Below are positions 1-30,812 of a stretch of DNA of 64,000 bases, piece by piece. The notes below the pieces were generated by a model. It worked only from the letters and a program-made list of their open reading frames with translations. It was not told the origin of the DNA and searched no databases. The translations under genes and the position numbers were made by a program. This DNA comes from Atractiella rhizophila (lineage: Eukaryota): contig MU271184.1 in NCBI GenBank assembly GCA_021432655.1, positions 124,001-188,000 on the forward strand, given 5' to 3'. Every line of letters begins with the position of its first letter. Within the stretch, counting starts at the first letter, position 1.

Positions 1-1211
1 TTTCGCACAAACAACTCCAGCGCCGCTGATTCTACGACTTCAAAAATCACAGAGGAACTCAGCATTTAAGTTGGCGCAGGCATATCGGTCAACGTCCGCA
101 GTATGTTCTTTCCGCTCCTGACGTGTTGATTTCTTAACAACCGATGCTTCAGCTGCTCCTTCAGACAGCCCATTGTTGTCTCATTTGGATGCTCTTCCGG
201 TTGCCGAAACCACCAACGTCTACTTTGTCCAGCCTGACTGCTTCGCGGCTGACAGCCCTCGTACTGGCCCAGGTGCTATACCAGTACGCCACCTCGAAAC
301 AACAGAGCGTAACGGCACAGCAGTGAGTTACCCAGGAGCCGATGTGTGAGAAAGCAACACGGTGGATAGCATGGACATGCCAGGTCTGTACTCCATGGTC
401 ATTTCCTATGATTCTCGCTAAGTGTAGGTGCCAGTCACAAACGTGAGGCCGTACGCTAAAAGGACAGCTTTACCACCTCGCACGTTTACACCTGTTGTGG
501 TAAGCTATTGCTGCTTCCTCAATGTATGCAAAGCTTGTCTGTAAAGTGGCAGGCATCACTCCATATTGGACACTTGCCAGCGACAAAAGGAGGTACAACT
601 AAGCGTATCCTGGGCGGAAGGTGTGTCAACACCCTGCTGGCAATTCTGTGTAACTGAAACATGCATTTCACATATAGGGAGATGTACAAGCGGTTTCGGA
701 TGGAGCAATGTGAGCAAGAGCATACTGCAGGCAAATTGGTAGCAGAACCAGATTTCAAGAAGGAGTATACGCAGCTTTCACAAGCTGAAAAAGCGGTCTG
801 TATCTCGTTCAATACAGCAAGTTTGTGCTTTGCTAAACTCAATGGGGCAGGACTGGAACCGGCGATGGAAGGAACAATCGGCATCGACTCAGACAGCAGC
901 AGCAAAGCCATCGAGCTCATCGACAACATTGTGAGGTTGAAGTTCAGAAGGGTGCAGGAGGGTGCAGGAGGAGGAGAAGGAGTAGGTGCAGGTGCGAGGG
1001 GCAACGGGATCGGCAGATGTTAAAACGCTGCAAATTTCGGAAAATAATGGAAATTCCTGTTTTTGCGCCAATCATCAGTCTCTCGCGTGTCTGAAAAACT
1101 GCAAAAAAAATCCTTAACCTGACCCAAATTTTGCGAGTTTTCCATCACACCGAAAAAGTGGGGAAAATGCTGGTAAATCTTGTCAAAAGCCGGAAAGCAT
1201 TTTTGACAGGG
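1..1211 (+). mobile_element. Terminal part of a CACTA/CMC-type DNA transposon (accessory gene 3' part plus terminus)
   Basis: ORF 661-1023 (EMYKRFRMEQCEQEH...EPDFKKEYTQLSQAEK) matches 18310-18534(-) (EMYRRSRIEQWEKE...EPDWKEEYKRLSQSEK). Ends in TTTTGACAGGG (1201-1211), the reverse complement of CCCTGTCAAAA at 17917. Confidence 0.6.
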
Positions 1212-1277
1212 ATTTATCACCCATCGGAGATCTATTGTTGCATCGACACATATTGTAGTCAATCAAAAGAGTCCCGA

Positions 1278-1400
1278 CACCCCAGTCGGCTCTCTTTGAG
1301 GCTTACGAGACCGAGAAATGAAGACCAGATTCACGGCCTTCGAGACCGTGGCCCAGCCAATTCTCAAAACAACTCTGAATTCGTGAATTGGCAGTCTGGT
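1278..1400 (+). repeat. Left TIR of KDZ element
   Basis: Aligns along its length with the reverse complement of 8932-9055 (shared blocks GAGAAATGAAGACCAGATT and CCAGCCAATTCTCAAAAC). Confidence 0.92.
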
Positions 1401-2077
1401 ACATCACGAAAGGTGAATTCCAAATTAGGAAAGCGTTAAAGGCGGGAAGTGACCTGTATATCTAAATCAATATATGTCGTATCCCCTCTACTCCTATACC
1501 CTAAGTTATATTGAGTGTGAATTGTATACTAAGTGGAAAATGCACGACATCCCATCTCTCCCCTTCCCTCCCTTTAAATTTCACTGCTGTGGTCACGTAA
1601 AGAAGAGAAGAAGCCAACTGAAGCATAAGACAGAGCGTACAGATGGTAAGCCAGTACATCTTTCATTTGTGTTTGTGTGTAGATGTCTTCTATTGCAATG
1701 GTACTATATAATATGGCCGTCCGCCCTGACCGTCTCTAAGAATACCAGCGAGAAGAAAAGACACCTCATTCAGCATTCGGGCATCAGATACATCCGCTTT
1801 CAAGCAACTGCCTTCAAGATTCATGTCCACTTTGAGCTGTAACAGTGTCTTTCCCAAAACATGACTTATATTATCTTTCATCACTGATGCCGTGTTATCA
1901 GTACTGAGTACTTATCTCTTTCAATTGAGCCGTAATACACCATTGCATGATATTAATTCAATCTGATTTACTTCCTGAAACCAGAAATAGAGAGAATGTG
2001 GCACGGTGTCGGTGTGGACTGGACCATCAAAGCGTCATCAGTTCAGTTCAGTAGGCAATATGAGAAGACATACCTTA

Positions 2078-4253
2078 CTATCCCTCCAACCGTTGTTTCT
2101 TCCTACTATGCCCTGGTTTCTCCTGAAGGACGACATTACCTTGTTCTAGCTGTTCAATCAACACTTTTAGCCAGTTCTCATGTGCTCTTCGCAAACCGGC
2201 TTGCATGTGATTTACGAAGTCCTCTGCACTAAGCACGTCTGATTTCTCACAGTAAAAGCTCCATCCCTTGAAGATTTTGTCAAACTTTGCAACCGGCCAT
2301 TCCTTGAAGTCTTGCTGCAATGCGTTACCTGTATTTTGAATTTTCACTGAGTTCACATTTGTAAACAAACGCGACAAAGCGCAAATCACTGGCAAGCTGT
2401 TTCAACAACCTTTTTGCATAAGTTTCTTTTTCATCCCGATACTGGCAATCATCTAATGAGTGGAGTTGATCTACATAATATATCAGATGTCTGTTGATGA
2501 GATAGAAATGTTAACCGACCTTCATGCTTCCGCAAGTGGTACACTGGCTCTCTCTTTACTGCCTCCGATCGTCCGATTCTGCTAGGAAGGGTGTGTGGAG
2601 ATTGTATATATGCTGCCATGTAGTTTAAAATTGAGAGACTGTGGATCATGCCCTTGGTTTGGATACAACTTTCCGTCAAGAGTGTATTGACAAAGCTACT
2701 TGCATTGTCAGATGAAGCTTCCATCTTGAATGCCCCATTTCGAGCCTGTGACGAAACGCAGAAGATGACAAATTCACAGTGAGCAGCAGCAAACACATTG
2801 TTGATCTAGAGACATTGGTGAAATGAGTGCAGTCTTAATGGCGACAGCGAATAGACTGACCTCTCTTTTCGCCTTCTGCATATAGGCTCCAGCTGTGCTC
2901 TCATCATCGGCATGTGACACCTTGAAGCTGTGGAAGCTGCTTTCCGAAGCTGCTTTGATCTTCTCAGCCTGTAGAAACAGATGTTCTTCCCCCGCCTCAA
3001 TGGCAGCAGCTTTCAACTCTTCGTACTTCTTGCCCAACGTCTTCCCCCTATCGCCACCACTGCGCATAGATCTGACTTATAAAAACGATGTATTATCATA
3101 TTTGTAGGATGGAGGTGTATAGCATATCACGTACACTCTTTAGATTGCGAAATTGCCTGGGCAGCTGGATGATACTTCACAAAGATGTTGTAGTCATTCA
3201 GTTTTGTTTGTACAACGCTAGTACTCTGTGTTAGTAGCGCCATCCTTCCTCACTTCAGATAGAATCACTGACCTATAGTGCGGTACACTGTCAGGATGTG
3301 CACCAAGTTCAATGGCTTTGACAATCATCCCGCGCTCTTGTCGCTCCCTCAAAGCTAAGAACTCCTCCCTTTGCACATTATTCAGCGACTGTTTATAACC
3401 CAACCCACGCGCAAAGGATAGAAGGGCTGAATTCGTCGTGTTATCCAAGTCCACATGCTTTCCAGGATAGTCAAGGCGCTCTTGACGAAATCGAGATTCG
3501 AGGCCGGCTGGAGGGTGGGACTTGTGGTGTGAGGTGGGTAGTGAGGATGGGGTATTTGTTTCGAGTGTGGAAAGTGGTTCTGCTAGGAAGGCGAAATTGG
3601 TAGATGGATTTGTCGTGGACTTGAGCAAATGCTCACGGAAGGACTGCTGAGGATGAGAGGAATTTTCGACGGGTAAATGTGGTAAACCTGAGGAAAGGAG
3701 AGATGGTACTCGGACCGCTGAAGCAGCAGGAAAGGACTGTATGTTGAGAGTAGATGAACCGGTACTCCTGTAGGAGTTCGCGAAAGTTGGCATAGGCAGA
3801 TGGGAGGTTGAAGGTGAAGGTGAATTAACAATTGAAGCGGTTGTGGCCGGTACAGGGTAATCAAGTCCTGACTAAATGCCATTCCCTTTTCCAGTGTGAA
3901 AAGAGAGTGGCCGGCATCTTTCCACACATCAGAGACGAAAAAGGGATTGTCTCCGACTGAATCAAAGAGGTGATTTGGATATTGATGGTGCCATTTTGTG
4001 TAGCATATACCAATCATATCCGTTGGTTTTTAGGATATCCCTTCAGCAAATAAGAAAATTACACACAAAGTCTCTGATTAGTAGTATTAAATCCATTTAT
4101 ACCTCCATTATTAGGCTCTGGTCGATTATGTTCTCGTTCTCCCACTAACTGCCCAAATCCTTGATGGCTTGTAGTAACAGGCCAGCAGTGATCGTTTGAG
4201 AGCGTACTATCCATGAATTGAATATTTGAAGGATTGTCGTATCTAGATTCCAT
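2078..4253 (-). CDS. KDZ-associated accessory protein, alpha-helical with HMG-box-like segment (multi-exon, possibly disrupted)
   Basis: Exon ORFs 4059-4349, 3218-3793, 2774-3067, 2449-2796, 2078-2395. Segment LALRERQERGMIVKAIELG...TKLNDYNIFVKYHPAAQAI...GKTLGKKYEELK resembles the HMG-like proteins beside fungal KDZ transposases. Lies inside the TIRs. Confidence 0.6.
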
Positions 4254-5295
4254 GTCAATATGCGGAAAATATGAGAGGATAGATTGTAACTCACTAGATA
4301 TTACAAACACGAAAAATACGCTGATGTTGCTGTAGTCAGAACGGAACAAAAAGAAAGGGGTACCTCACGTGATTTTGACACGTCCAGGAGTTCGTGTTTT
4401 TCAAAGATGGTTGGCTTCTTAAAGATGCTCAGATATTTGCGTGCCAATGCTGACACATTACGCTTTACTCTGCAAGAGTTAATAGGCACAGCTGGAATGA
4501 TATCCAATCGCCAAACTGCTATATAAATCCCTCAGCCATTACTTCGTGGTAATGAAAATCCTAAGGAAGTAAATGAACACTGAAATAGTATTAATCATTA
4601 GAAGGAAAGAGTCATCCTTACTTTAATATCTAACACTCTTAGCTTTATCGTAAAAGAGCAATAAGAAGTGTCTGACAAGGCTGTTGTCATTGCTCCGTTG
4701 TTGCCTTTTAAGTACTGCCGAGCTATTGCTTTTAAGTTTCAATGTGCTTTGGTGTGATACGAGATTTAGATAAGCTGAATGGGTAGAAATGAAACACATT
4801 GTCGAAGGACTAATTGTCGAACTTAAGCGAAGAATAATTATTATCAGTAAATGAAATTGTATGTGTTAGCCAGCAATATTTAAGCGATACGTTATATCCA
4901 AGAACATGTTGAAGGCTGTGGCATGTTTGATTTCTGCTAGTGGGTTAACATAGGTATATTGATAATATTAATCGATTGAATGATAATATCTTTAAGAAAA
5001 GCATAATGAGACAAGTTTTGACGACAAACTCACGAGTTATAAGCAATACATCAAATGCATACTTATATTTGTATTGCGACGTCAGCCATCCTGCGTCACT
5101 GCCACCATGGGTTTCCACCATTACCCCCATCGTTGTTTGTGATAGCTTAGCGTCTAGTGAACTTGAACAAATGAATCTTACCAATTGGGAAATTTGGTCC
5201 GTGTCCAAGGCGTTCAATCAATAGCGTAAGCACCAACTCAAAACCACTCTCTTCTAATATCAAAGGAGCACAATGTTAAGGAGAAAGAACGGAAT

Positions 5296-8200
5296 TTATT
5301 CTAAAGTGCTATCATCAAAACTATTTACAGTACATTCTGCTTCCTGCAACTCCTCTGCAAAGTCAACTTCCTCGTTAACCTCTTCAAATCCATCGTCATC
5401 TTCCCATTCCTGCTCAAAATTTTCAGCGAAACTTCCTACCACATCTGATCCTGTCCGAAGTCTTCCCAACCAGGCATGTACACCTTCCTCTTCGCTCCTT
5501 GTTTCTTCCCAAAGCCAAGAGAGGTCATTAAACCATACTTGTTCAAGGGATTGTAAGCGGCTCAGTTCCTTCTGAAGGAGATGGAGCGTGGACCGTGCAC
5601 ATTTGAGTGGTGAGATGGATGGGTTTTGGGTTAAGTATGCTGACATTTGATAGAATGGTGGGGGCGTTGCCGTAAGGGAAGGGTCATGAGGAGAAGTGGA
5701 GTCTATCACTACCATTTCAAAGTATTAGGTGTAGAAAGATAATCTATGCTCCGAGTAAACTCCAATCCTCTCGCGTTTGCCCAAGCCATCGCACGACGCA
5801 CTTCCCACCCCATACGCCTCAGCTCCTCCACTGCACGATCCCGCTCCATGACCGTTCGTATCCCTGCCTGGGTGATCACATCTGTCTGCCACAGCCCTCG
5901 GGCGCACATCATGAAGCCATCATTCCAGAAAGGGTCATCAAGGGAAAGGGATTTAAGTTCGTCATAAGTTGACATTTTTTTTCGGGAGTGCTTCGTCAGG
6001 ATAGTCTCGTTCGTACTTCGCAACATGTCGCAGGTAGGCAATTGAAAGTTGTTTTGGCGGCACGGTGATGTTTTGATACAGAGGCAAGGATACGTTCACG
6101 TTTTTTGTATCCTACAAGAATTAATCTTGATAATGATTACTGAGGTTGACGAACCTGTCAAATAACCTCCACGTCGCTCTTTAGCAAGTGTGATCGGACG
6201 GAGTTCTTCCTTAATACGAAGTTGACGCCGTTGCAATTCTAGTTTTGCATGCCGAATAAGGAGAAGCTGTTTTCTCCTCTCTTCTATTATTTAACACATT
6301 GCAGGTAAGCATCCAGCTTAGAGAGCGAGAAGCATCTTACTTTCAGCAGGACGGAGGTCACGAAATGCATCTCCCAACTCCCTTGCGAGCAGTTCTAATT
6401 CGGCACTATATTTGTCCATTGCAGTAAGCGCCTTCGCGGCTGTTGCTGGAAGGATCTGGCGCGTGGACTCGAGCATTCTTCTATGCTGATGGGTGAGAAA
6501 TGCGACAAAACTGAAGGAGAGCATACGAAGTTTGTTCTAGTCGATACTGCAGGTCAAAGAATGCACCTAGTTTCTCCGCTTCCTCCTTTTGTCGAGTTTT
6601 CTTCGACTCTTGACCAAGATCTCTCTTCTCCTGTTCCCATTGTTCGTAGAAAAACGCTTCAGTATATTTCGACCCTGGATGGTGAATGTTGTCGATGGAT
6701 TTGAGAAAAGTCAAGTCGCTTGGACGCCTGCCGCAAACACGTTGCGGCATTAGCATACTTTCGACGAAGGGTTACAGCTATAGACACACCTGTGAGCCTG
6801 CTGAATATAATTTGAATGAGTGGACGACATACCGAGGCCCACAAGTCCTTCTTCAACAATATACTGAGCTCGAAACTCAATAGTGAGGAGGCGGTTGTTA
6901 CGTGTCATGTAACGGCATCCTCCAATGATGGAGGACATCTTGCTCCATGTCCGCTCTGTTCCTTCACCTTCTGACTGGCCAAATCCAGTGGAGTATTTGG
7001 AGTTGTATTTGATTTGGCAGTCCCAACCGTGAGCATAGCCGTGAAAGGTCGGAAGACGGGCTTGAATTCGCTCTCGGATGTCAGTGGGGAGGAGGTTACG
7101 CTGACGATAAATTTTCAATGACATTCCATGATGAGAAGTACTACGCACTTTGTCCCACATGCTTTTCGAAATTGCAGGCGATATCATATTGGGCTCCAAA
7201 TCGCCGGTCCACGAAAGCTTGAGCAAGGTATTTAACAACCGCGACGGAATAGCAAAGTCTGAAGACAGTCAATGAGGTATAAATTCATGTGCAAGACTAT
7301 GTACTTCTCTCCCGATTTGAAGATGTTTGCAAAGATCAATGGTCATGGCAAAAAGCCCCGTGTCATCTGAGCTCTTGAAGCTTGACTGGCTCCGTTTGTC
7401 GTCTGCAGCTTTGAAAGACTCTGTGCAAGCGTCCTAATGACATTTAATACTTCAACCTTGATATAACAGAGTGCATACCTTGTCATGGGACTTATACCTG
7501 CTGGTGGCTGTTTCATTCGTTTCTCTTGCATCATCAATGGCCTCCTGAGGGATGAACGATGGAGGATGGCGAAGGGGAATGGCATTGATGGTGCTATTTG
7601 CTTGATGCTGCTGAACAAAGTTGCCATCCATACTGAAGAGGTTGTCCGGCACTTTGTCTTCTTTTCGCTCGTTCTCCATAGGTCCGAAGCAAGGGGGACA
7701 GATCATCGCGAGCCGATCAGAGGTGCGATGATTCAAGGTCTCTTCAAGCAGTTGTTGCACACCTAGGAGGATGCACCGGAACACAGAGACCGTCTTCCCA
7801 AATGGAATGCGAAACGACCGTGCCTGGTCCCAACATGAACACTTAGCACATAACCCTAACATGGAGCAGGAACATATGAAGGCGCTTGGACGAACGGTGT
7901 GGAAGACGAGCAAGGACTGGCAGACATACTTGATCAGTCCCGCATCCTTTCAAAGCAGTCGATTTGCCAGGTAGCAGATGAAGATATTTCTGCCATCCCT
8001 CAATCCAGCTTTGGGTTGAAATTCCGGAAGGCGCCCACATAGAATGATGAAAGCGAAGGAAGCGGATAGAGAAGGCGGTTCGAGGGGAGTGGGGAGAGGC
8101 GGGGAGATATCCCATGCAGAGAAGTCGGACTGGCTCAGGAGTACATCTGCAGAAAGACACTGTCGCACGCCGTTCCTCTTCCCAACATCCCATGACCTCG

Positions 8201-8770
8201 TGTTCAACGTAAGGAGAGGCAGCATACCTAGGACATCCAGCAAGTCTACTTCTTTCTCACTCCTATCATCCTGCTCACAGCGACAAAGAAAGACCTCCCC
8301 AACCCGGTCCTTGAAAGCTTCCTCGCCATCCGCCCAACCTCCACTCCAACCTTCTAGTAATAAATAATGCGCCACCATCTCTGGCATCAGTTCAGTCCAG
8401 CGTCTATCCTCTTTGACAAGCTTGCTAACATAACGTTCTGATCGATAGCTCTTGCGAAGGAATTGTCGAGCGCAATCCAAACTAGACTAGCGTGGGTCGG
8501 AGGGGTGTCACCATCCTCCCCTTCCCAATCAAATGGTTGTGCACCTTCTGAAATATTCGGGAGAGGGACGGCTGAGGAGTTTGGTGATGGAGGGGAGGAA
8601 GGAGAGGAATGCGAGAAGTCGATGGCATCCATAATCACGTCCTGGGTTCGAGATTTGGCGAGAAATGCATCTGCTCTTCTGCCTGACAGACGACCTGAGC
8701 TGGTGAACAACGTTGTCTTGCCATTATCCTTGAGCGGTCTGACACGCCAGCCGTCTCGCGAACGCTTCAT
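5296..8770 (-). pseudogene. CxC1 + KDZ transposase (Kyakuja), frameshifted
   Basis: CxC1: FCRCTPEPVRLLCMGYLPASPHSPRTAFSIRFLRFHHSMW. KDZ: CPPCFGP, FSMDGNF, YDIAC, FHGYAHGWDCQ, GFGQSEGEGTERTWS. C-terminal DDPFWNDG...EELRRMGWEVRRAMAW. GT-AG introns. Frameshifts at ~8485 and ~7345. Confidence 0.9.
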
Positions 8771-8931
8771 GGGAGCGAGGTTGTCGAGACTAGGAGGGTG
8801 GATTGGGGATGGAGTGATCGGTTCGGTTTAGACGTCCAAGGTGGTTCACGAACGTATGCGTCTTAAAGCTTGAAGGAGGGAGGATGAGGAGCAGAAGTTG
8901 TTATGATGTGGTCAGAGTTGTCATTTTCCCG

Positions 8932-9055
8932 ACCGCACTGCCAACTCACAAGTCGTGAATCGTTTTGAGAATTGGCTGGCGTGCTGGTCTCAAAGACCGT
9001 AAATCTGGTCTTCATTTCTCAGTCTCGTTGTCCTCTAGAACAGCCGACTGGGGTG
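8932..9055 (-). repeat. Right TIR of KDZ element
   Basis: Reverse complement of 1278-1400, followed by TSD AGTCCCGA. Confidence 0.92.
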
Positions 9056-9240
9056 AGTCCCGAATACGGTGAGGTTTAGAGTTACGGTTCAGACCATGTG
9101 TACGCAAAATTCTGCTCAGATGAGTATATAAAAGAAACTAGCCATTGTCTGGTGTTCCTCCTCCACCTCATGATCAGGTTACATCATATATAATTAAAAG
9201 GTTTGTCGGCATTCAGTGTGACTTCAAGGAGCATCTGTTC

Positions 9241-9329
9241 TCCTTTGTCCTTTTCATATCCTTTATGTTCACGAGTTCTGTTCTCCTTTGTCCTCTTCAT
9301 ATCCTTTGTTTTCACGAGTTCTGTTTTCC
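9241..9329 (+). repeat. ~43-bp tandem duplication (2 copies)
   Basis: TCCTTTGTCCTTTTCATATCCTTTATGTTCACGAGTTCTGTTC repeated with a few substitutions. Confidence 0.85.
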
Positions 9330-9377
9330 AAACCCAAAAATCAAGTTGTTCCCTCTATCTGTATCATCATTGATGTA

Positions 9378-9645
9378 GACGATAGCCCCAACAAAAAGCT
9401 TCATGTCGGTAACATCCCATACAATCTCGACCATACCATGCTTTGAACGTTCTTTGTGCTGTACGGGCCCTTTCAGGATTGTGTAATCATAACGGGAAAG
9501 AGACCCCGAATAGGAGCAGAGGTTATGGCTTCATCACCTTTCGAGATCGGAGAGACGCCATGGAAGCCTGTACACCACTTCTTACCGCAAACAACTGTCA
9601 CTTATCCCTTTCCAACAGGTGTCGCTTGGAATGGTTTCCTCAATG
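9378..9645 (+). pseudogene. RRM (RNA recognition motif) protein pseudogene
   Basis: RNP2-like KLHVGNIPY followed by an in-frame TGA. RNP1-like RSRGYGFITF lies in a different frame. Confidence 0.75.
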
Positions 9646-10879
9646 TAAGTCTCCTTTCCTTGATGCTCTTTCTTACATTACTGACTTAAGGGCAAGGGTA
9701 AGACCATGTTCTAGGTCTTGCATCCAGTCAATGAGCTGAGATGTCAGTCAGATGCCTAAGCCCTCATCGTTGACTTCGATGTGAACTAATCTCTTTCATC
9801 GCCATTCTAAGGTTAACGTACAGCGTAGGATCCAAGCCGCGAAAGCAAAAATAGCTCGCGGCTTAGCAAGCCACCCCTCCATTCTTGCCTTTGTTACAAG
9901 TGTTGGTCAAGCTTGGACTGAAAATGTGGCCAGTATACCGCCTATTTGGGGCCCACATAGCATATTTTGCCAATGATACCGCAAATGAGCGATAACGTGA
10001 ATGATAACAGAGCCTGTTGATGCTACCTGCTTGTGATCTGCATATGTTACCACTCGTGTTATCGCCGATTTCAGATCCAAGATGAAATACATTCTGGCCT
10101 ATCTGGATCTATATGCTGGAAAAAGGATTGCTCGTCGAGTTTTTGGCTTGCGAATTGGAAAGGTGGAATGAGATGAATCTCGTGTTAGGATGGACAACTC
10201 ACACACCACCCACCTCACTTCAGCGTTCTATAGGCATCCATTGGTGTATTATTTATGTCGATGGCCGATAATTGGGCCTGGCGATCTCGAGTGGGCAATG
10301 ACACGCGCCGCAACAGAGCAAACTGATGCCAAGATCTTCGATCGACTACAATATGCTAGTCTATTCAACAATACGATAACTGCCCCAAAGTTCTTCTTTC
10401 GTGCTAGCTTTTCCGCAGTACGGTCAAACCGTCTTACTGCGAAGATATGAAAGCATCCTGACGCGCGATGAATTGAATCCTTCAAATGAACGACATCAAC
10501 TTGCCTTCTTTCTTTTTCGAATGGATGTATGACCCCCGCCTATCCATAATGCAGACATCAGACGTTAAAGTTTACTTCTTTGTCAGCTGCTGTTTATCGG
10601 CCATTCGAGATCTGAATGATTCGTATGACTGCTGATGTACATCGCGCATCAACCGCGCATGGATAAGGACCCCAGTAATCTAATTGAACAAAGAACAATG
10701 GCTGAGTATAAAAGACCTGGAGCGTCAAAAGCCGCCTTTCTGCCCCTAGGTCAGCTCTTTAGGCAGACAAACTGCCCCTGGTCTTTGGTTTGTTCGTCTC
10801 TCTTCACATTCAACGGCCGTCAGCCGTGTATTAACGACATAAGAGGGTTAATATTAATAGGGCATGCTTTTGCTGAGAA

Positions 10880-11152
10880 ATGATCCCGTTCATCATTGTT
10901 TCACTTCTGACGGTCATATTCAAAATCTCCGACTGGACCACGAGCCACATCACACACCAACAAGAACAGCAGGAGCAAATGCTCAAAAAGCAAGAGCACC
11001 TGCTTCGAGAGTGGCTCAAGCAAGAACATCTGCTCAAGGCGTCCTGCTGGATTCTACTAGTACTCCTTGCACTGTTGTTTTGTTTTTGTATGTTTGTACG
11101 TTTTCCTGGCGGCCGTGCTAAACCCTTTGACAGTTGGTATGAGGTATTGTAA
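10880..11152 (+). CDS. Small 90-aa protein with two hydrophobic segments and a central Q/E-rich helix
   Basis: ATG-initiated ORF, TATAAAA at ~10707 upstream, internal repeat LKKQEHLL/LKQEHLL. Confidence 0.4.
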   Translation: MIPFIIVSLLTVIFKISDWTTSHITHQQEQQEQMLKKQEHLLREWLKQEHLLKASCWILLVLLALLFCFCMFVRFPGGRAKPFDSWYEVL

Positions 11153-12719
11153 GGGGAGAATAGGTGTGTGGAGGACAGTGAGTTCCCTTATTATTCGATT
11201 TCTTCGACTTGACAGACGAGAATTTTAAAAGGTTGAGAAGCAGAAGGAGAAAGAGTTTTGGTCAAGCGTTAAGCGTTAGGGCACGGGGTCTGTGTTAACT
11301 TTATGCAGACATCAGATGTTAAAGTTTACAGTTTACACCTTTGTTCTCCGCTGTTTATCGGCCATTCGAGGTCGTTATCAATGGCTGTCAGCCGATAAAC
11401 CTTCATTCCTGGCGACTTGCGATCCTAAATATGGTTGGGAACGCTGGAATAGTTGGCAGGTTTGTGCTTTCTAGAAATTGATATCCTTCCTGAGGTTATT
11501 TGGTCAGTGTGCTTTATAGACTTTCAACGATATTCTTTGATCATTCTCTTGACCGCCCGAGAAGAGGATCCGTTTGGCTTGTTCATTCTTCTCAGTTAGA
11601 AGCGATGGACATAATTAAGCTCGATATATTGGAGTAATCAAGGTAAGGAACGGACTGTCGTAAGGCTTCCGTATCCCCCACATTCACTGGTGTACCCGTG
11701 CTACCCAGGGGCGAACCCGAAAAGGTGTTCTAGGTGTTTCTCAAATAAATCGACATTGCCTGATACACTCTCGAGCGTCCGTCCTCTTCGTCTGCTAGGC
11801 AATCAAAATTTTTGGAAGCGGACAAAAATAGCAGGTCATTGATTCAAAATGTTGACTTTTAGCCACATCCGCCTACACCCTTAAACCTACTCCTGGTGAG
11901 AGAGAAAGCTTTAGAACATCCCTCCCCATTTTCGTATCGTCTCTACAGCCCTAACCGCCACCACCTGGAATCTCCTAAAGGCGTTAAACTTGAAGTGTTG
12001 ATAAGGGCATTAACACACGACACATGGTCCCCAAATATAGAGCTCCGTTGACTATAGTCTGTACGGTCTGAAATATGATCACCCGGCAACAAAGAATATT
12101 GCCCCTCATGAAGAAGCGATTTCAAACAGTTGTCTGTTCTAAGGCTCCTTTAGAGCATACCCCACAGGCAGATAGTCCCGGGATGAGCAACAGTTTTAGG
12201 TTTGGGACACTTGCTGTGACTATGTGGCCTGCACCGTATGACTTACAGGAAAGAGCCATACTTGGACGATGCACCAGCAAGCAGTAACCCTCCTTTTTTC
12301 GCTGTACTATACAATCCAAAACAGTACTCCGTGCTCGCCTGAGTGACAACTCAGAATCGAGGGTAAACAAATTCATTGCACCATGAGCCTGAGGGCATGC
12401 AAGAGGTAAACGGACACAGAAGCATGACGGAGACCAGGCTGTGCTCCGAAGCGACGCACGTAGGCACACAGAAAGGGAGATGTGAAACTGAAGAGCATGG
12501 AACGAAGTAGAAATGGCTCAATCATGAAAATGAGGTCAAGAATGCCCCAAGTCCATTTCCTGGCAGCGGTCATTGTGGCCCCCTTTCCTCTTCCCGTTTG
12601 AACTAAGGGCTGCATGTATGTCCATTCTACCCATGAGCCTTCTCGAGCTTGAGCTTTCAGGAGCAGGATTTGCTGGTCGCACCGGGAAGTGGTTGACAGT
12701 AAAGTTGGGGGAAATGCGA

Positions 12720-13885
12720 AAGCTAGCGGTTGACGCAATCCATGGTCGAATCGTCAGGAAGGAGTTGGTCTTCGGTTGCATGTGGAGAAGAGTCGCCGGG
12801 AGACCTGTCGGCTTCTGGAATGAGCTGGATACTTTTCGTTGCAGTGTACGACGGATTGGGACCAAGCGACTCCAGAAGCCGTCCTTCGGAGAAAGATGGC
12901 TCTAGTCGTACAGTTTTCAACACTCGAAGATTCGCGTCGCCCAGGATCCAAGGGTGTTGACAAGCTTCTGCAACGCTCATCCGCTCGTCTACCCTTTGTC
13001 TGCATAGCCGATGGAGGAAGTCGCAACCTGTACATCACTTTAACACTCGCAGCAATGTATCAATGAGATCTGTCATACATTCGGGAGAAGTACCCTCCGG
13101 GAAATCCTTCGTCTTTAGAACACGCCTTTCAAGACGCGTGGCAAGAGGCACTTCCGAGTTTTCGCGGTCGAAAGGAATGGCATTGATCATGCAGGAGAAG
13201 ATGACGAGGCCTAGAGCCCATGCATCACATTTATCGGTATACTGACCAAATTCCTTCGCGATGGCCTCTGGGGCCAACCTTTACAGATCCATTATCAGCA
13301 ACGGGGTCAAAAAGGGTAGCAAGGAGAGGTGTACCAAGTCATCCTCAACTCGCTTTCCTGAACCATCCTCGCTAAGCCAAAATCTGCAATCTTCACGACA
13401 GGGTTTATTCCATGAGTAATGAGAATGCTACCCGGCTTGAGATCCCGGTGAACAATCTTTTTGGCGTGAAAGGCAGCGATAGCTGGGAAGAGCATCTTAG
13501 CAATCTGCCTCGCGTCTTCCTCGAATAAACCTCCGCGTTTTGAGACATAACTGAGGAGGTCTCCACCATTGACGTATTCCAGGACCAGACAAAGGTCATC
13601 GCCATCGTCAAAGCATTCGATAAGCTTGACGACGTTTGGATGGTTAATCTCGTTGAGGATCGCCATCTCTTTCTCAAACATTCCTTTGCTCGTTTCAGAC
13701 TTCAGCCTCGACTTCTTGAAGTGCTTCACGGCTCGTACATTGCTCGTCCCACGCTCGATCACGCGACATACCTTCCCAAAAGAATCCCTGTCACAATGAA
13801 GTAAATATGAGACGACATAGCGAGAAAGTGAGCTGCGGACATTCCAATAGGGATTGATTTATTGGTGTCAGCTTCATACCTAAAC
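12720..13885 (-). CDS. Rad53/Chk2(CAMK)-like Ser/Thr kinase domain, probable pseudokinase (copy 1, no FHA seen)
   Basis: DSFGKV, RAVKHF, EKEMAIL, HPNVVKL, HRDLKPGSIL, KIADFGLA, LAPE, DAWALG, ERMSVAEACQHPWI across GT-AG introns. Confidence 0.85.
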
Positions 13886-26071: not shown

Positions 26072-28153
26072 ATGTCGCGTTCACCAAGCTCGTCATCGGT
26101 TTCTTTCGTCCCTTCGCCACACCTTACCTGCGCGAATACAACCAATGGTTCCGCGTCCTAGCACCCAGACTTGCCTTATCACTGCAATCTCGCCAATTCG
26201 ATAGTTTCCCTCTCTCCGCGAGGACTGACTAATCGTGACCTTGGGCTCCAACAGTCTCCCTCCACTGAGGTTGCGGGTCTCTTCAATGGAGTGAAAGGGA
26301 GCAGGACCAACAATTCGCAGATAGGTGCCTATGGCGGCGCTCACAGTTCTCAGCATCATGTACCTTGGATGCAAGAAGAGCATGAGGCGACTCTGCAGGC
26401 GACGCAGAGCGGTGATGATGAGGGCTGTCTAAAGCCTTTACCTCCAGGTCCGGTTTTTCTCCCTACCTTCGCTTAACGCGACAGACAGCTCATTAATAGG
26501 GTGTTGGGGAGTGTGCGCCTCATTCCTGCTCAATTCTCCAAGTACCTTACTTTGCTCATGCGGTGCTTGTGATATGGTGGATAGAATGGTGCCCACCAGC
26601 CCAACCCTTTGCAGCCAACCCATCCCTTTCAACCAGCCTCCGACAGAGAGACTTACCATTGGAAGAGCAAAAAACAATTGCGTTTGCTTGGACGCGAAGA
26701 TTATTTCTAATTTCCATTGCGAGATTTGGATAGATCACAATGGGGACGTTTGGTTGAAGGATACGTCGTCGAATGGAACGTATGTACGGCAGAGTAAAGT
26801 CGGGAACGAAATACTTACAATACTCAAGCACGGGGATAAGGTGACCGTTAATATTCTGTCGATGACGTTTTTGCTCATGAGCTACGTAGGTTAAACTCGG
26901 AAGTCACTCGGAAGGATATGGTGGACTTCCTTTTACTTTCCCACCACTGCAGGTATTGACCGTCTGCGATGTAGGTTTTCGTTGGCAAGACCCGAATGAA
27001 CCTCTCCCTCAGGATCCCTTGCCATTCTGCGGAGGTATTTGGTTGGAGGAAGTATGATTTCATTGAGTCTCTTAGAATGTCCGCAGCTCTCTTTCTTGCT
27101 ATGTCGTCTCATATTTACTTCATTGTGACAGGAATTCTTTTGGGAAGGTATGTCGCGTGATCGAGCGTGGGACGAGCAATGTACTAGCCGTGGAGCACTT
27201 CAAGAAGTCGAGACTGAAGTCTGAAACGAGCAAAGGAATGTTTGAGAAAGAGATGGCGATCCTCAACGAGATTAACCATCCAAACGTCGTCAAGCTTATC
27301 GAATGCTTTGACGATGACAATGACCTTTGTCTGGTCCGTGAATACGTTAATGGTGGAGACCTCCTCAGTTACATCTCAAAACGCGGAGGTTTATTCGAGG
27401 AAGACGCGAGGCAGATTGCTAAAATGCTCTTCCCAGCTATCGCTGCTTTTCACGCCAAAAAGATTGTTCACCGGGATCTCAAGCCGGGTAGCATTCTCAT
27501 TACTCATGTAATAAACCCTGTCGTGAAGATTGTAGATTTTGGCTTAGCGAAGATGCTTCAGGAAAGCGAGTTGAGGACGACTTGGTACACCTCGCCTTGC
27601 CACCCCTTTGACCCCGTTGCTGATAATGGATCTGTAAAGGGTGGCTCCAGAGGCCATCGCGAAGGAATTTGGTCCGTATACCGATAAATGTGATGCATGG
27701 GGTCTAGGCCTGGTAATCCTCTCCTGCATGATCAACGCCCTTCCTTTTGACCCCGAAAACTCGGAAGTACCTCTCGCCACGCGTCTTGAGAGGCGTGTAC
27801 CCAAGTGGACGGATTTGCCAGACGGCACTTTCTCCCGAATGTATGACATCTCATTGATACATTGCTGCGTTGTGTTGAAGTGTTGTACAGGTTACAACTT
27901 CCTCTATCGGCTATGCAGACAAAGGGTAGACGAGCGGATGAGCGTTACAGAAGTTTGTCAACACCCTTGGATCCTGGACGACGCGAATCTTCGAGTGTGG
28001 AAACCTGTACCACTGGAGCCATCCTTCCCCAAAGGATGGCTTCTGGAGTCGCTTGCTCCCAATCCATCGTACACTGCAACGAAAAGCATCCAGCTCATCC
28101 CAGAAGGCGACGGGTCCCCCTCCGAGTCTTCTCCACCTACAACCGAAGACTAA
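26072..28153 (+). pseudogene. FHA + kinase, Rad53/Chk2/Cds1-like (copy 2)
   Basis: ATQ-containing N-terminus. FHA: LTIGRAKNN..IISNFHCEI..LKDTSSNGTYV..LKHGDK. Kinase 27130-27980 near-identical to copy 1. TAG at ~26159, VAVK lysine replaced by E. Confidence 0.85.
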
Positions 28154-30072
28154 CTCCTTGTTGAAGATTCGACCGTGGATATGTCAGAAAACACTCCACA
28201 CTCTCCCGGACCCTGAGGGTTCTAACTGAATTGTTTATCCGTTCTTTCCCAAATACCTCTTGTTGAATGATTCGACTGAAGACAGGACGTCCCAAGGGCT
28301 TCGTACAACCGAGAATCAAATTCTCTACTAACAATGGCTTCACCTGTACCCCAGAGGCTAGCCGTTCCATCGAAGAGGCCTTGTCGTGGTGAACTGCGTA
28401 TACTGAAATGGCTGTGACAATAGAGTAAAATTACCTCTGACAGAAGCTCCAAATTATCATGGACGTTTAAAATCGATCTGAAATAATATTCGAGTCTGCC
28501 TTTCCTCCATCAAGGTGGGGACTGCGAGGTTCATCCTTGTCTTCAAGGGAGAGCGCGTCAAACAGATGTGTTGCGGTTTTGCCGTCATCACGTCCTAACC
28601 ATCCCACTCAATCTCTCCTCGTCTCCTCAGTCTCCAACAAACATCCTCCACCGACTCCCTCATTCATCATTCAAATTCTTGGGAGAAGACCTAAAACTAT
28701 AGATTCAAATCCTCGCCGTGGGAAACTCGAGGCATCGGTAGGGTAAATATTTTGTAACAATGAGTTCATTTGGTAATATGTTGACGGCGCCCCGATCCGG
28801 CTATGGGTCCTCAACTCATTGTTGGGGTACATTTGGTGGCACTTGGACTCTGCTCAGGATTAGATTGTTGACGACTCGTGGAAGCTTGCGATAATCTTTG
28901 CTGCTGCAGTAAGCCACGAGGGGCCAGCACTTAACGGTTGTGTTCAGAACTGTGTCCAGAACTCTTCCGTTGATGCAAATGTAGGCTTTAGCAAGATGAA
29001 GAGAGCTCTTAGGAACATCCTGTTGGGTGTAAATTAGGAAATTACCTGACATTCGTGCCTTTCCATACTATCCATGTCCATGAGATAGACAATTCTCTCA
29101 CGCTAGCGATTGAACGGAGGAACAGGCACCTTTAAGTGATCCATCCACCGCATTATCCCACTTTTGCCTTCCTCAAAAGCGAAAGCGCTGCCGATCCAAC
29201 TGCCAAAGCCTGACCAAGAGCTTCCCGTCGAAAGCGTGCACGATCTCCAGCAAGTCCCCGATGCCAGACACATAACAGGACGAAGTTTTGATGTCAGGCA
29301 TGATACTTTATGCCTCCAGGAGGCTGAAACAAACAAGGCTGTCACTTGCTGATGATCAAAAGCGCATTAATATTTCATTGTAATGCATTCGTTTCAGACC
29401 TTGGAATCAACAGACAACCCATCTGACTTTCCAGCAAAAACAAGGGGCGTTTCGTCAGCCGAAGAGGTTCAAACCCACGTTGAAACTTTCATATCACTTC
29501 TTTCTCTTTGACTTCAAAATAGCAAGTGAACTTCAACCCATCAATAGCATGACTCCACAATAACTCGTCCATTAGCCCCTGAGGGCAATTCGAAGGGTTT
29601 GGATGCAGGAGGGTTCGGACGTAGGCATGTTTGTTCAGGGGAGTGAATTGGCAAGGAGTTAGACGTTTCACAATTTCACACTGGAGGAACGGTTGGGTTT
29701 GTAATTGAGAAGGAATGCGATTGCTTGTCTCGGGGGTTTTGGATGATGTGTGGTGGCGAACAGGAAATGAAGGTTTTGATAAGAAGATGCCGCGGTAATT
29801 TTGGATAATCGGATCCAGAAATGACCGAGGAAAGGGTTCGGTTGGAGGAAAATGAATGAGAAAAGTGGGGTATTCATGAGGTATTGTTATGGAAGGGGGG
29901 TTGAATGGAGGGTAGGGTAGTAAGGTTATGAATACATGGGTAGAGGCTAGGAAGGCGCTAAAGGAACACAAATGATGTTTTTAACGGAGTTGAGGGAATT
30001 AAGCAAGGATAATAAGGAACAGAAAGAGGGAGAGGATCGTTAGAGAAGGGAGAGGGAGGTAAGTATTAAAAA

Positions 30073-30812
30073 TGTCACAGCTTGGAGCGGGAAAGCTTGG
30101 AGCGGGAAAGCTTGGAGCGGGAAAGCTTGGAGCGGGAAAGCTTGGAGCGGGAAAGCTTGGAGCGGGAAAGCTTGGAGCGGGAAAGCTTGGAGCGGAAAGC
30201 TTGGAGCGGGAAAGCTTGGAGCGGGAAAGCTTGGAGCGGGAAAAGGGAGGAATTGAGAAGTTTTCTGGCCAACATCCTAGCCTACCATAAGGAGCAGAAG
30301 GGGAGAGAATAGGGGATATTTCAAAGTATGGTTGAAAGAGAGGATGAAGTGGGAGAGGTCAAGGAGGTAGAATGGTATATCCCAATGAAGGCTATGGAGT
30401 GGTTTGAGAGGTTGCTCCAGGGGACAATCACGTTCTGTATACACTTCAACAACGAAGGAGGAAGATGAGGGTTCATGGACAAGTTGGTAGTCACCGGAAG
30501 AAGCGTGAAAATAGGTGAGGAGGCACTTGCACCACCAAGAATGCAGCTGCAGCAAGGTCTTACGAGTATCAGGAATTGGAGGCACTGATAGACGAATACG
30601 GAAGCGAGGGACAGGGAACTCAAAAAGAGGGTTTCGCTTGACCCATCAAACCCAGAATCCCAGCTGGTTCTGTAATACATCTCATATGATCTCCAAGTCA
30701 AGTCATGGTTCGTAGCCCTCCCAAACGATTACTAGAACAAACCTGTGCTAGCTCAGAAACTCAAGGATTCCTTCCTGCGAATATCCGAACCAACCTCATC
30801 GGCCTTATGACA
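30073..30812 (+). mobile_element. Putative LTR of a Ty3/gypsy element
   Basis: Begins TGTCA and ends TGACA, followed by degenerate gag/protease sequence. Second LTR not identified. Confidence 0.45.
30079..30242 (+). repeat. 15-bp minisatellite (AGCTTGGAGCGGGAA) x11
   Basis: Ten perfect units and one 14-bp unit (30184-30197). Confidence 0.97.

Follow-up and report, generated by a model that had tools for sequence, protein, structure and literature searches.

The closest described match to the element reported here is the group of Cryptococcus neoformans transposons KDZ1-3, which according to two recent studies (PMC11343200; 10.1101/2025.05.19.654958) are 9.2-10.9 kb long, possess terminal inverted repeats (TIRs) of 139-241 bp, and are flanked by target site duplications (TSDs) of 8 bp (4-8 bp for KDZ2/3). 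They encode a transposase combining a CxC1 cluster with a KDZ domain and several extra open reading frames (ORFs) without domains, carry no TET gene, were placed in the Dileera clade, and have been caught transposing. Other groups of the KDZ superfamily differ in their termini: according to Kojima 2025 (PMC12730594), Kyakuja elements lack TIRs and have CA..TG tips and 7-bp TSDs, TSDs of 8 bp are made by the Dileera family Zisupton-1_PGr, and Zisupton elements have 8-bp TSDs together with TIRs. For the Pucciniomycotina, the subphylum of Atractiella, the same study names Dileera as the KDZ lineage with which TET genes are associated, and the canonical Zisupton transposase is characterised by CxC4 and SWIM (Huang et al. 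2024, PMC11343200). Here, we describe an element on contig MU271184.1 of Atractiella rhizophila (Pucciniomycotina; assembly GCA_021432655.1), located in a stretch of 64,000 nucleotides (contig positions 124,001 to 188,000, forward strand) that is referred to as the window and whose own numbering is used throughout. The element, at positions 1278-9055, is very probably a decayed copy of a multi-copy cut-and-paste DNA transposon of the KDZ superfamily. An earlier note on this window, which proposed an exactly delimited Kyakuja transposon with two genes and no TET/JBP, started from the premise that fungal KDZ elements are mostly known from protein neighbourhoods; this premise is outdated by the 2024-25 papers (PMC11343200; 10.1101/2025.05.19.654958), since these report fungal KDZ elements with defined ends and experimentally proven mobility that lack TET and include additional unknown ORFs.

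The element comprises 7,778 bp and is bordered by two long, imperfect TIRs. The left TIR (1278-1400, plus strand, 123 nt) starts with the tip CACCCCAGTCGGCT, and the right TIR (8932-9055, minus strand, 124 nt) ends with ...AGCCGACTGGGGTG, the reverse complement of CACCCCAGTCGGCT closing at 9055; 98 of the 124 aligned columns are identical. A repeat finder reported the inverted arms as two pairs, 1278-1347/8986-9055 (70 nt, 84%) and 1353-1400/8932-8979 (48 nt, 79%), which align as one unit with a single 1-nt gap and include perfect blocks of 14 nt at the tips and of 19 and 18 nt further inside. The 14-mer of the tips was found at only these two sites within the 64 kb, with up to 2 mismatches tolerated (0.32 expected). 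Immediately outside the TIRs lie two exactly matching copies of the 8-mer AGTCCCGA, at 1270-1277 on the left and at 9056-9063 on the right, the latter directly adjoining the end of the right TIR. This 8-mer has two occurrences in the window and no more, which taken alone is not unusual because 48 of 100 shuffles contained it at least twice; it is the contact of both copies with the TIR tips that goes beyond chance, an 8/8 match at fixed positions being expected about once in 65,536. The exact ends, the TIRs of about 120 bp and the exact duplication claimed in the earlier note are thereby confirmed. A TSD of 9 bp was considered, as the letter G precedes each copy of AGTCCCGA, and is formally possible, but the tips would then no longer be symmetric, while 8 bp preserves CACCCC...GGGGTG. 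The CAC...GTG tips also recall those of CACTA/EnSpm elements, which generate 3-bp TSDs; this assignment was rejected, the transposase here being of the KDZ type and the TSD 8 bp long.

Assembled contigs from four public sequencing runs matching the stretch (X1 and X2, which stem from one sample, and X3 and X4, from differently coded organisms) were compared with window positions 1-12000 at 85% likeness. X1 and X2 each include one contig that joins position 1268 directly to 9055. Both skip 7786 nt, with 9 letters fitting both sides, namely AGTCCCGA and the preceding G; since this G stands before both repeats, the joint is ambiguous over these 9 letters. The skipped length equals the element plus one repeat (7778 + 8), so these contigs represent an empty site in which the target is present once, and both the 8-bp TSD and the single-AGTCCCGA joint that the earlier note had suggested looking for are borne out, the joint in contigs of one sample and with a diverged flank. 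In the second organism, record 21 of X3 (1863 nt) matches positions 8228-9055, stops exactly at 9055, and continues for about 1 kb with sequence unlike the window. A second organism thus holds a copy that ends at the same base, and the observation that would have told against the proposed boundaries according to the earlier note, namely copies ending elsewhere, was not made in this contig. The same contig runs unbroken from the 5' region of the transposase to the terminus, for which reason a KDZ gene captured between hAT or Mutator ends was rejected as an explanation of the termini.

That the structure might have arisen by something other than transposition, for example as a chance inverted repeat, a segmental duplication or a rearrangement boundary, was also considered, the flanks themselves being repetitive. 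Against this stand the 123-nt TIRs adjoining an exact 8-nt repeat with a matching transposase inside, the empty-site contigs, which skip exactly the element and one repeat, and the contig of the second organism with its end at the same base; we attach practically no weight to an origin of this kind.

The element described here is one of many copies. Variant copies were present in 649 contigs of X1 and in 703 contigs of X2, at 85-100% likeness, and contigs of X3 and X4 cover parts of the transposase region (window positions 5200-9055) at 90-99% likeness. As these two runs come from differently coded organisms, the element family is not confined to the source sample. In X3, contigs cover the transposase part, and hardly or not at all the part with the accessory gene; no contig spans the two, and the uncovered part is not to be taken as evidence. 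Substitutions among the copies in X1 were rich in transitions and symmetric (C>T/G>A 146/137 versus A>G/T>C 163/127), and no bias of the kind expected from repeat-induced point mutation (RIP) was visible in these counts. Metagenome scans with patterns derived from the TIRs returned 0 loci.

Inside the element, two genes are encoded on the minus strand, as the earlier note had stated. The first is a multi-exon KDZ transposase gene at 5296-8770, with an ATG start (MKRSRDGW) at 8770 and its stop codon at 5296-5298, which is a pseudogene in this copy. Its CxC1 zinc-cluster domain (PF18802; 7981-8175, minus strand, profile positions 36-100 of 105) was matched in the ORF at 7846-8256 with an E value of 1.3e-21 and 77.1 bits, compared with a cut-off of 26.9, its first part being encoded by the upstream exon. 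Weaker matches to other cysteine clusters, CxC2 (E 7.5e-07) and CxC3 (E 0.0021), fall on the same transposase. The KDZ catalytic domain (PF18758; 6864-7433, minus strand) was recovered by Pfam in three pieces in three frames, corresponding to profile positions 52-85, 101-135 and 134-214; the ORF at 6753-7268 matches it with an E value of 3.5e-20 and 73.1 bits (cut-off 26.6), and this match extends over profile positions 134-214 of 217 only. Further downstream, the alignment revealed a conserved C-terminal GIR...W block (5712-6095, minus strand) that matches relatives. At 5728-5732, near the C-terminal part of the transposase, contigs show other copies with about 36 extra letters, in two variants, from which the window copy thus differs in internal length as well. 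The locus therefore combines a KDZ domain, an N-terminal CxC cluster and defined termini with a TSD and an empty site, and the claim of a bona fide fungal KDZ insertion with exact ends, whose transposase had been proposed for a check against CxC1 and KDZ, is upheld on all of these counts.

Homologues of the KDZ exon were found in three A. rhizophila proteins, P0001, P0002 and P0003, and the homologues named here for both genes of the element (P0001-P0006) are from A. rhizophila in all six cases. All exons of P0001 align with the window at 100%, so that this protein was modelled either on this locus or on a copy identical to it. The sister proteins P0002 and P0003 match the KDZ profile in one piece over positions 4-213 of 217 (E 1e-52 and 2e-50), and contain neither CxC4 nor SWIM. 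Compared with these sisters, the window has lost the codons for AVCRHDQ and changes frame at the same point, owing to a 17-nt deletion at 7343-7348 (minus strand); the letters missing here are found in X1 and X2 on contigs with loose ends at 7343 and 7348, and read A-V-C-R-H-D-Q-P on the minus strand. The motif VCRHD is present in 8 of 8 aligned relatives, including agaricomycete ones at 20-25% identity, and is absent only from the model of the window copy. Relative to other copies, two single extra bases shift the frame further on the minus strand: one at 7154, between ...EKHV and DK..., which is left out in X1 at a depth of 509.8 out of 509.8 and in X2 at 1987.3 out of 2508.7, and one in a T run at 6706, between ...KRLDF and LKSI..., which is absent at a depth of 612.6 out of 1694.8 in X1 and of 1688 out of 4638.2 in X2 (about one third). 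It is because of the 17-nt deletion and the further frameshifts that the KDZ domain of this copy can be read only in three frames.

With VCRHD lost and the frame shifted at 7154 and 6706, the window copy is incapable of encoding a working transposase and hence is non-autonomous; the broken catalytic core bears on its autonomy, not on its membership of the family. An intact, autonomous two-gene Kyakuja element moving by its own transposase would share the ends, the TSD, both genes and the CA...TG tips, the latter as reported for Kyakuja in PMC12730594, and the still perfect TSD argues for an insertion that is not very old. Such an element is nevertheless highly improbable here, considering the deletion of VCRHD by 17 nt, the two frameshifts and a KDZ domain spread over three frames, and considering that published Kyakuja elements show a 7-bp TSD and no TIRs as opposed to 8 bp and TIRs of 123 nt in the window. 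From the description in the earlier note of a two-gene unit that moves, the two genes can therefore be retained; movement by its own means is contradicted by the 17-nt deletion and at least two further frameshifts.

The lineage of the element was assessed from its design. The window element has an 8-bp TSD and TIRs of 123/124 nt and so departs from two hallmarks published for Kyakuja (PMC12730594), the 7-bp TSD and the absence of TIRs, which speaks against the Kyakuja label given in the earlier note; the third hallmark, CA...TG tips, is present. The 8-bp TSD and a CxC1 plus KDZ transposase accompanied by long TIRs, as in KDZ1-3, are features of the Dileera type, and the element would on these grounds be closer to the CxC1-bearing elements of the Dileera clade (Cryptococcus KDZ1-3) than to Kyakuja, and is probably Dileera-like. 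The likeness to KDZ1-3 extends to domainless extra ORFs and the absence of TET/JBP; it is a likeness to the design given in the published accounts. Differences are also evident: the window element is smaller (7.8 kb versus 9.2-10.9 kb) and its TIRs are shorter (123 bp versus 139-241 bp), it has one extra gene where KDZ1-3 have several, its host belongs to the Pucciniomycotina and theirs to the Tremellomycetes (PMC11343200/PMC11588098), and mobility was demonstrated experimentally for KDZ1-3 whereas the window holds a pseudogene copy. The Dileera elements of rust fungi (for example Zisupton-1_PGr of Puccinia graminis; PMC12730594) resemble it in superfamily, 8-bp TSD and a host within the Pucciniomycotina, but they carry a PU-type TET/JBP gene, measure 13-17 kb, and the consensus in Table S1 starts with GACC..., not with CAC....

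The element could alternatively belong to Kyakuja or to an unnamed CxC1 lineage, rather than to Dileera, with TSD and TIR habits unlike those of the Kyakuja elements described to date. Few KDZ families have been delimited so far, the nearest relatives retrieved come from agaricomycetes, are only 30-36% identical and are annotated with CxC1 as well as with CxC2, and the neighbours found in the Atlas carry CxC1, CxC2 or CxC3; two identifiers among the retrieved relatives, CC1G_13031 and CC1G_14357, were listed in no paper that our search found. The CA...TG tips and the KDZ transposase are shared with Kyakuja elements of the Agaricomycotina such as Kyakuja-1_LB, which differ, as described, by 7-bp TSDs, missing TIRs and AG-type TET/JBP genes, where the window element has 8 bp, 123-nt TIRs and no TET (PMC12730594). 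Since Huang et al. assign to Dileera the Cryptococcus elements with which the window element shares its 8-bp TSD, long TIRs and CxC1, and since PMC12730594 reports Dileera in the Pucciniomycotina, linked with TET genes, we consider this alternative possible and clearly the less probable of the two. Membership of the Zisupton lineage is very unlikely: the 8-bp TSD, the TIRs and the KDZ-type transposase agree with Zisupton elements of fish and fungi as characterised in PMC12730594, the lineage for which such termini were first described, but CxC4 and SWIM, which typify that lineage (PMC11343200), were both absent at E <= 0.05 from the 85 ORFs of the element described below, in which the best cysteine cluster is CxC1.

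Several points weigh against the interpretation of the locus as a decayed, Dileera-like member of a mobile KDZ family, or narrow what it can carry. The empty site is a paralogous or a strongly diverged allelic site and not a clean allele from another strain, because the empty-site contig of X2 (1876 nt) runs through 9055-9218 and 9277-9980 at about 94-95% identity, so that the right flank is about 5% diverged, and its left match is just 56 nt long. Both ends were visible for a single insertion, so that a TSD length of 8 bp for the family as a whole is deduced from one TSD and one empty site. The sequencing evidence consists of assembled contigs, which give neither copy number nor proof of absence. 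Regarding the defects, the state of the window at 6706 is common to about two thirds of the contig depth, and the differences at 7154 and 6706, which lie in homopolymer runs, could be assembly errors; for the 17-nt deletion this is unlikely. Finally, the lineage call draws on the design of the element, and one part of that design, the CA...TG tips, is also a Kyakuja feature (PMC12730594).

The second gene of the element, a multi-exon accessory gene at 2078-4395, lies downstream of the transposase on the same (minus) strand, is interrupted by introns, and is separated from it by an AT-rich spacer (4396-5295; GC 0.34 at 4501-5000) without a family match. The protein P0004 (450 aa), a model of this locus, maps at 100% onto the window and covers 2081-3793, and its sisters P0005 (411 aa) and P0006 (565 aa) represent other copies, P0006 mapping to about 4392. 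The N-terminal part of the gene is damaged: the codon corresponding to the start Met of P0006 reads ACG in the window, one nucleotide is deleted at 3987, behind which most other contigs have an additional A, and the frame changes near 3868 relative to P0006 and P0014. The sister transposase P0003 and the sister accessory protein P0005 are each recorded from a contig of 70,209 nt, and the pairing of the two genes thus recurs at at least one other locus. When P0006 was compared with 1.84 billion representative proteins, only 5 matches were obtained, all at least 75% identical; since nothing but near-identical copies was found in so large a collection, the accessory family is an orphan. P0004-P0006 matched no Pfam family at E <= 0.1, sequence and profile searches of the PDB with the accessory protein gave no match (best E 0.41, a ribosomal protein), and the Atlas model of the protein (pLDDT 0.38) yielded no usable feature match or neighbour. 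AlphaFold2, run on an alignment of 7 rows, returned a model with a mean pLDDT of 35.7, in which residues 1-234 are structureless and are followed mostly by helices and by three short strands.

The absence of a TET/JBP gene was examined with all 85 ORFs (six frames, 45 aa or longer) that overlap the element, which were compared with Pfam at E <= 0.05. TET_JBP, HMG box, SWIM and CxC4 were all absent from this set, which matched only KDZ and CxC1-3 apart from five sub-threshold chance matches (14-18 bits, below the cut-offs). With 0 TET/JBP matches in these ORFs and in P0004-P0006, the element appears to be free of TET, in keeping with what the earlier note had proposed. The remainder of the window, represented by 95 ORFs of at least 105 aa, likewise contained no Pfam match to TET/JBP and yielded nothing but host genes (two protein kinases, an FHA domain, a kinesin-associated domain and a cyclin). 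TET proteins of the PE type are recognisable by structure-based comparison alone, according to PMC12730594, and the accessory gene might in the same manner encode a hidden, highly diverged TET/JBP-like dioxygenase missed by sequence searches. We hold this to be scarcely credible, given that Pfam and the PDB profile search were empty for the accessory protein and that its low-confidence model is predicted to be mostly helical, with no beta-rich double-stranded helix core.

One speculative role for the accessory protein, to which we give a small chance, is not that of passive cargo but that of a lineage-specific co-factor needed by this KDZ family, either for transposition or for escape from host silencing. 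The idea stems from the fact that the gene follows the transposase at two or more loci and that its only relatives among the 1.84 billion proteins are near-identical copies. Precedents exist for both functions: Harbinger elements need a Myb-like second protein for transposition, and escape from host silencing has been proposed as the role of transposon-borne TET/JBP.

By analogy with the KDZ family, from which the mechanism is taken, a DDE-type KDZ transposase with its N-terminal CxC1 zinc cluster would recognise the TIRs of about 123 nt, and the identical 14-nt tips and the conserved inner blocks of 19 and 18 nt would be candidate binding sites. The CxC1 cluster is said to have been regarded as a DNA-binding module by Iyer et al. 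2014. The element would then be excised and inserted at a target cut with an 8-nt stagger, the repair of which would give rise to the AGTCCCGA duplication. The window copy itself would move only if an intact sister supplied the transposase in trans.

The surroundings of the insertion are themselves rich in repeats. Both flanks (1-1269 and 9064-12000) are repetitive in the source sample, with many variant contigs and up to 10 of them per variant position near 11.1-11.7 kb, and several contigs break at 1211/1212, 57 nt to the left of the insertion. The KDZ copy may lie within or next to a further repeat; BLASTN of the flanks against the window revealed no ends belonging to a host repeat of this kind. 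Just to the right of the insertion, at 9234-9319, a 43-nt tandem repeat is present in 2 copies (93%), and its length is polymorphic among contigs, as seen from joints of 9218 to 9277, 9259 to 9357, and 9259 to 9386. Further to the right (10429-11373), the duplication of a unit of about 740-760 nt varies among contigs, which skip from 10429 to 11168 or return from 11226 to 10551; the unit is marked by a 72-nt direct repeat at 10541 and 11302.

Other repeats are found elsewhere in the window. An inverted segmental duplication (12738-13850/27069-28180) carries a protein kinase gene and consists of arms of 541, 309 and 224 nt with 89-95% complementarity, located about 13-15 kb apart; the corresponding Pkinase matches are on opposite strands (13310-13858 and 27076-28150), and an FHA domain was identified at 26433-26891. 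Positions 30049-30272 are occupied by a tandem array of about 14 copies of the 15-nt unit AGCTTGGAGCGGGAA. A pair of 112-nt inverted repeats (33240-33351/45623-45734, 88%) is situated 12.3 kb apart with a kinesin-related gene between them. Their similarity fades on both sides, with no sharp tip or visible duplication, and they probably represent a short repeat that is present twice, not the two termini of a single element.

The window element is another exactly delimited fungal KDZ element and as such is fairly ordinary, its design having already been described in Cryptococcus. No paper on the transposable elements of Atractiella rhizophila was found in a full-text literature search, and as far as literature searches show, this is the first KDZ element described from the Atractiellomycetes. 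Its ends and the list of its defects will be useful for the repeat annotation of the A. rhizophila genome, in which the current gene models P0001 and P0004 have been read from a defective transposon copy. The sole new question that the element raises is the role of its orphan accessory gene: if the co-factor idea were true, the accessory protein could be a new kind of transposon accessory protein, and might correspond in function to the unexplained extra ORFs in Cryptococcus KDZ1-3. More generally, the element supports the view that CxC1-type KDZ elements generate 8-bp duplications and have long TIRs even in basidiomycete lineages that are only distantly related, and that their common companions are unknown genes and not a TET/JBP gene.

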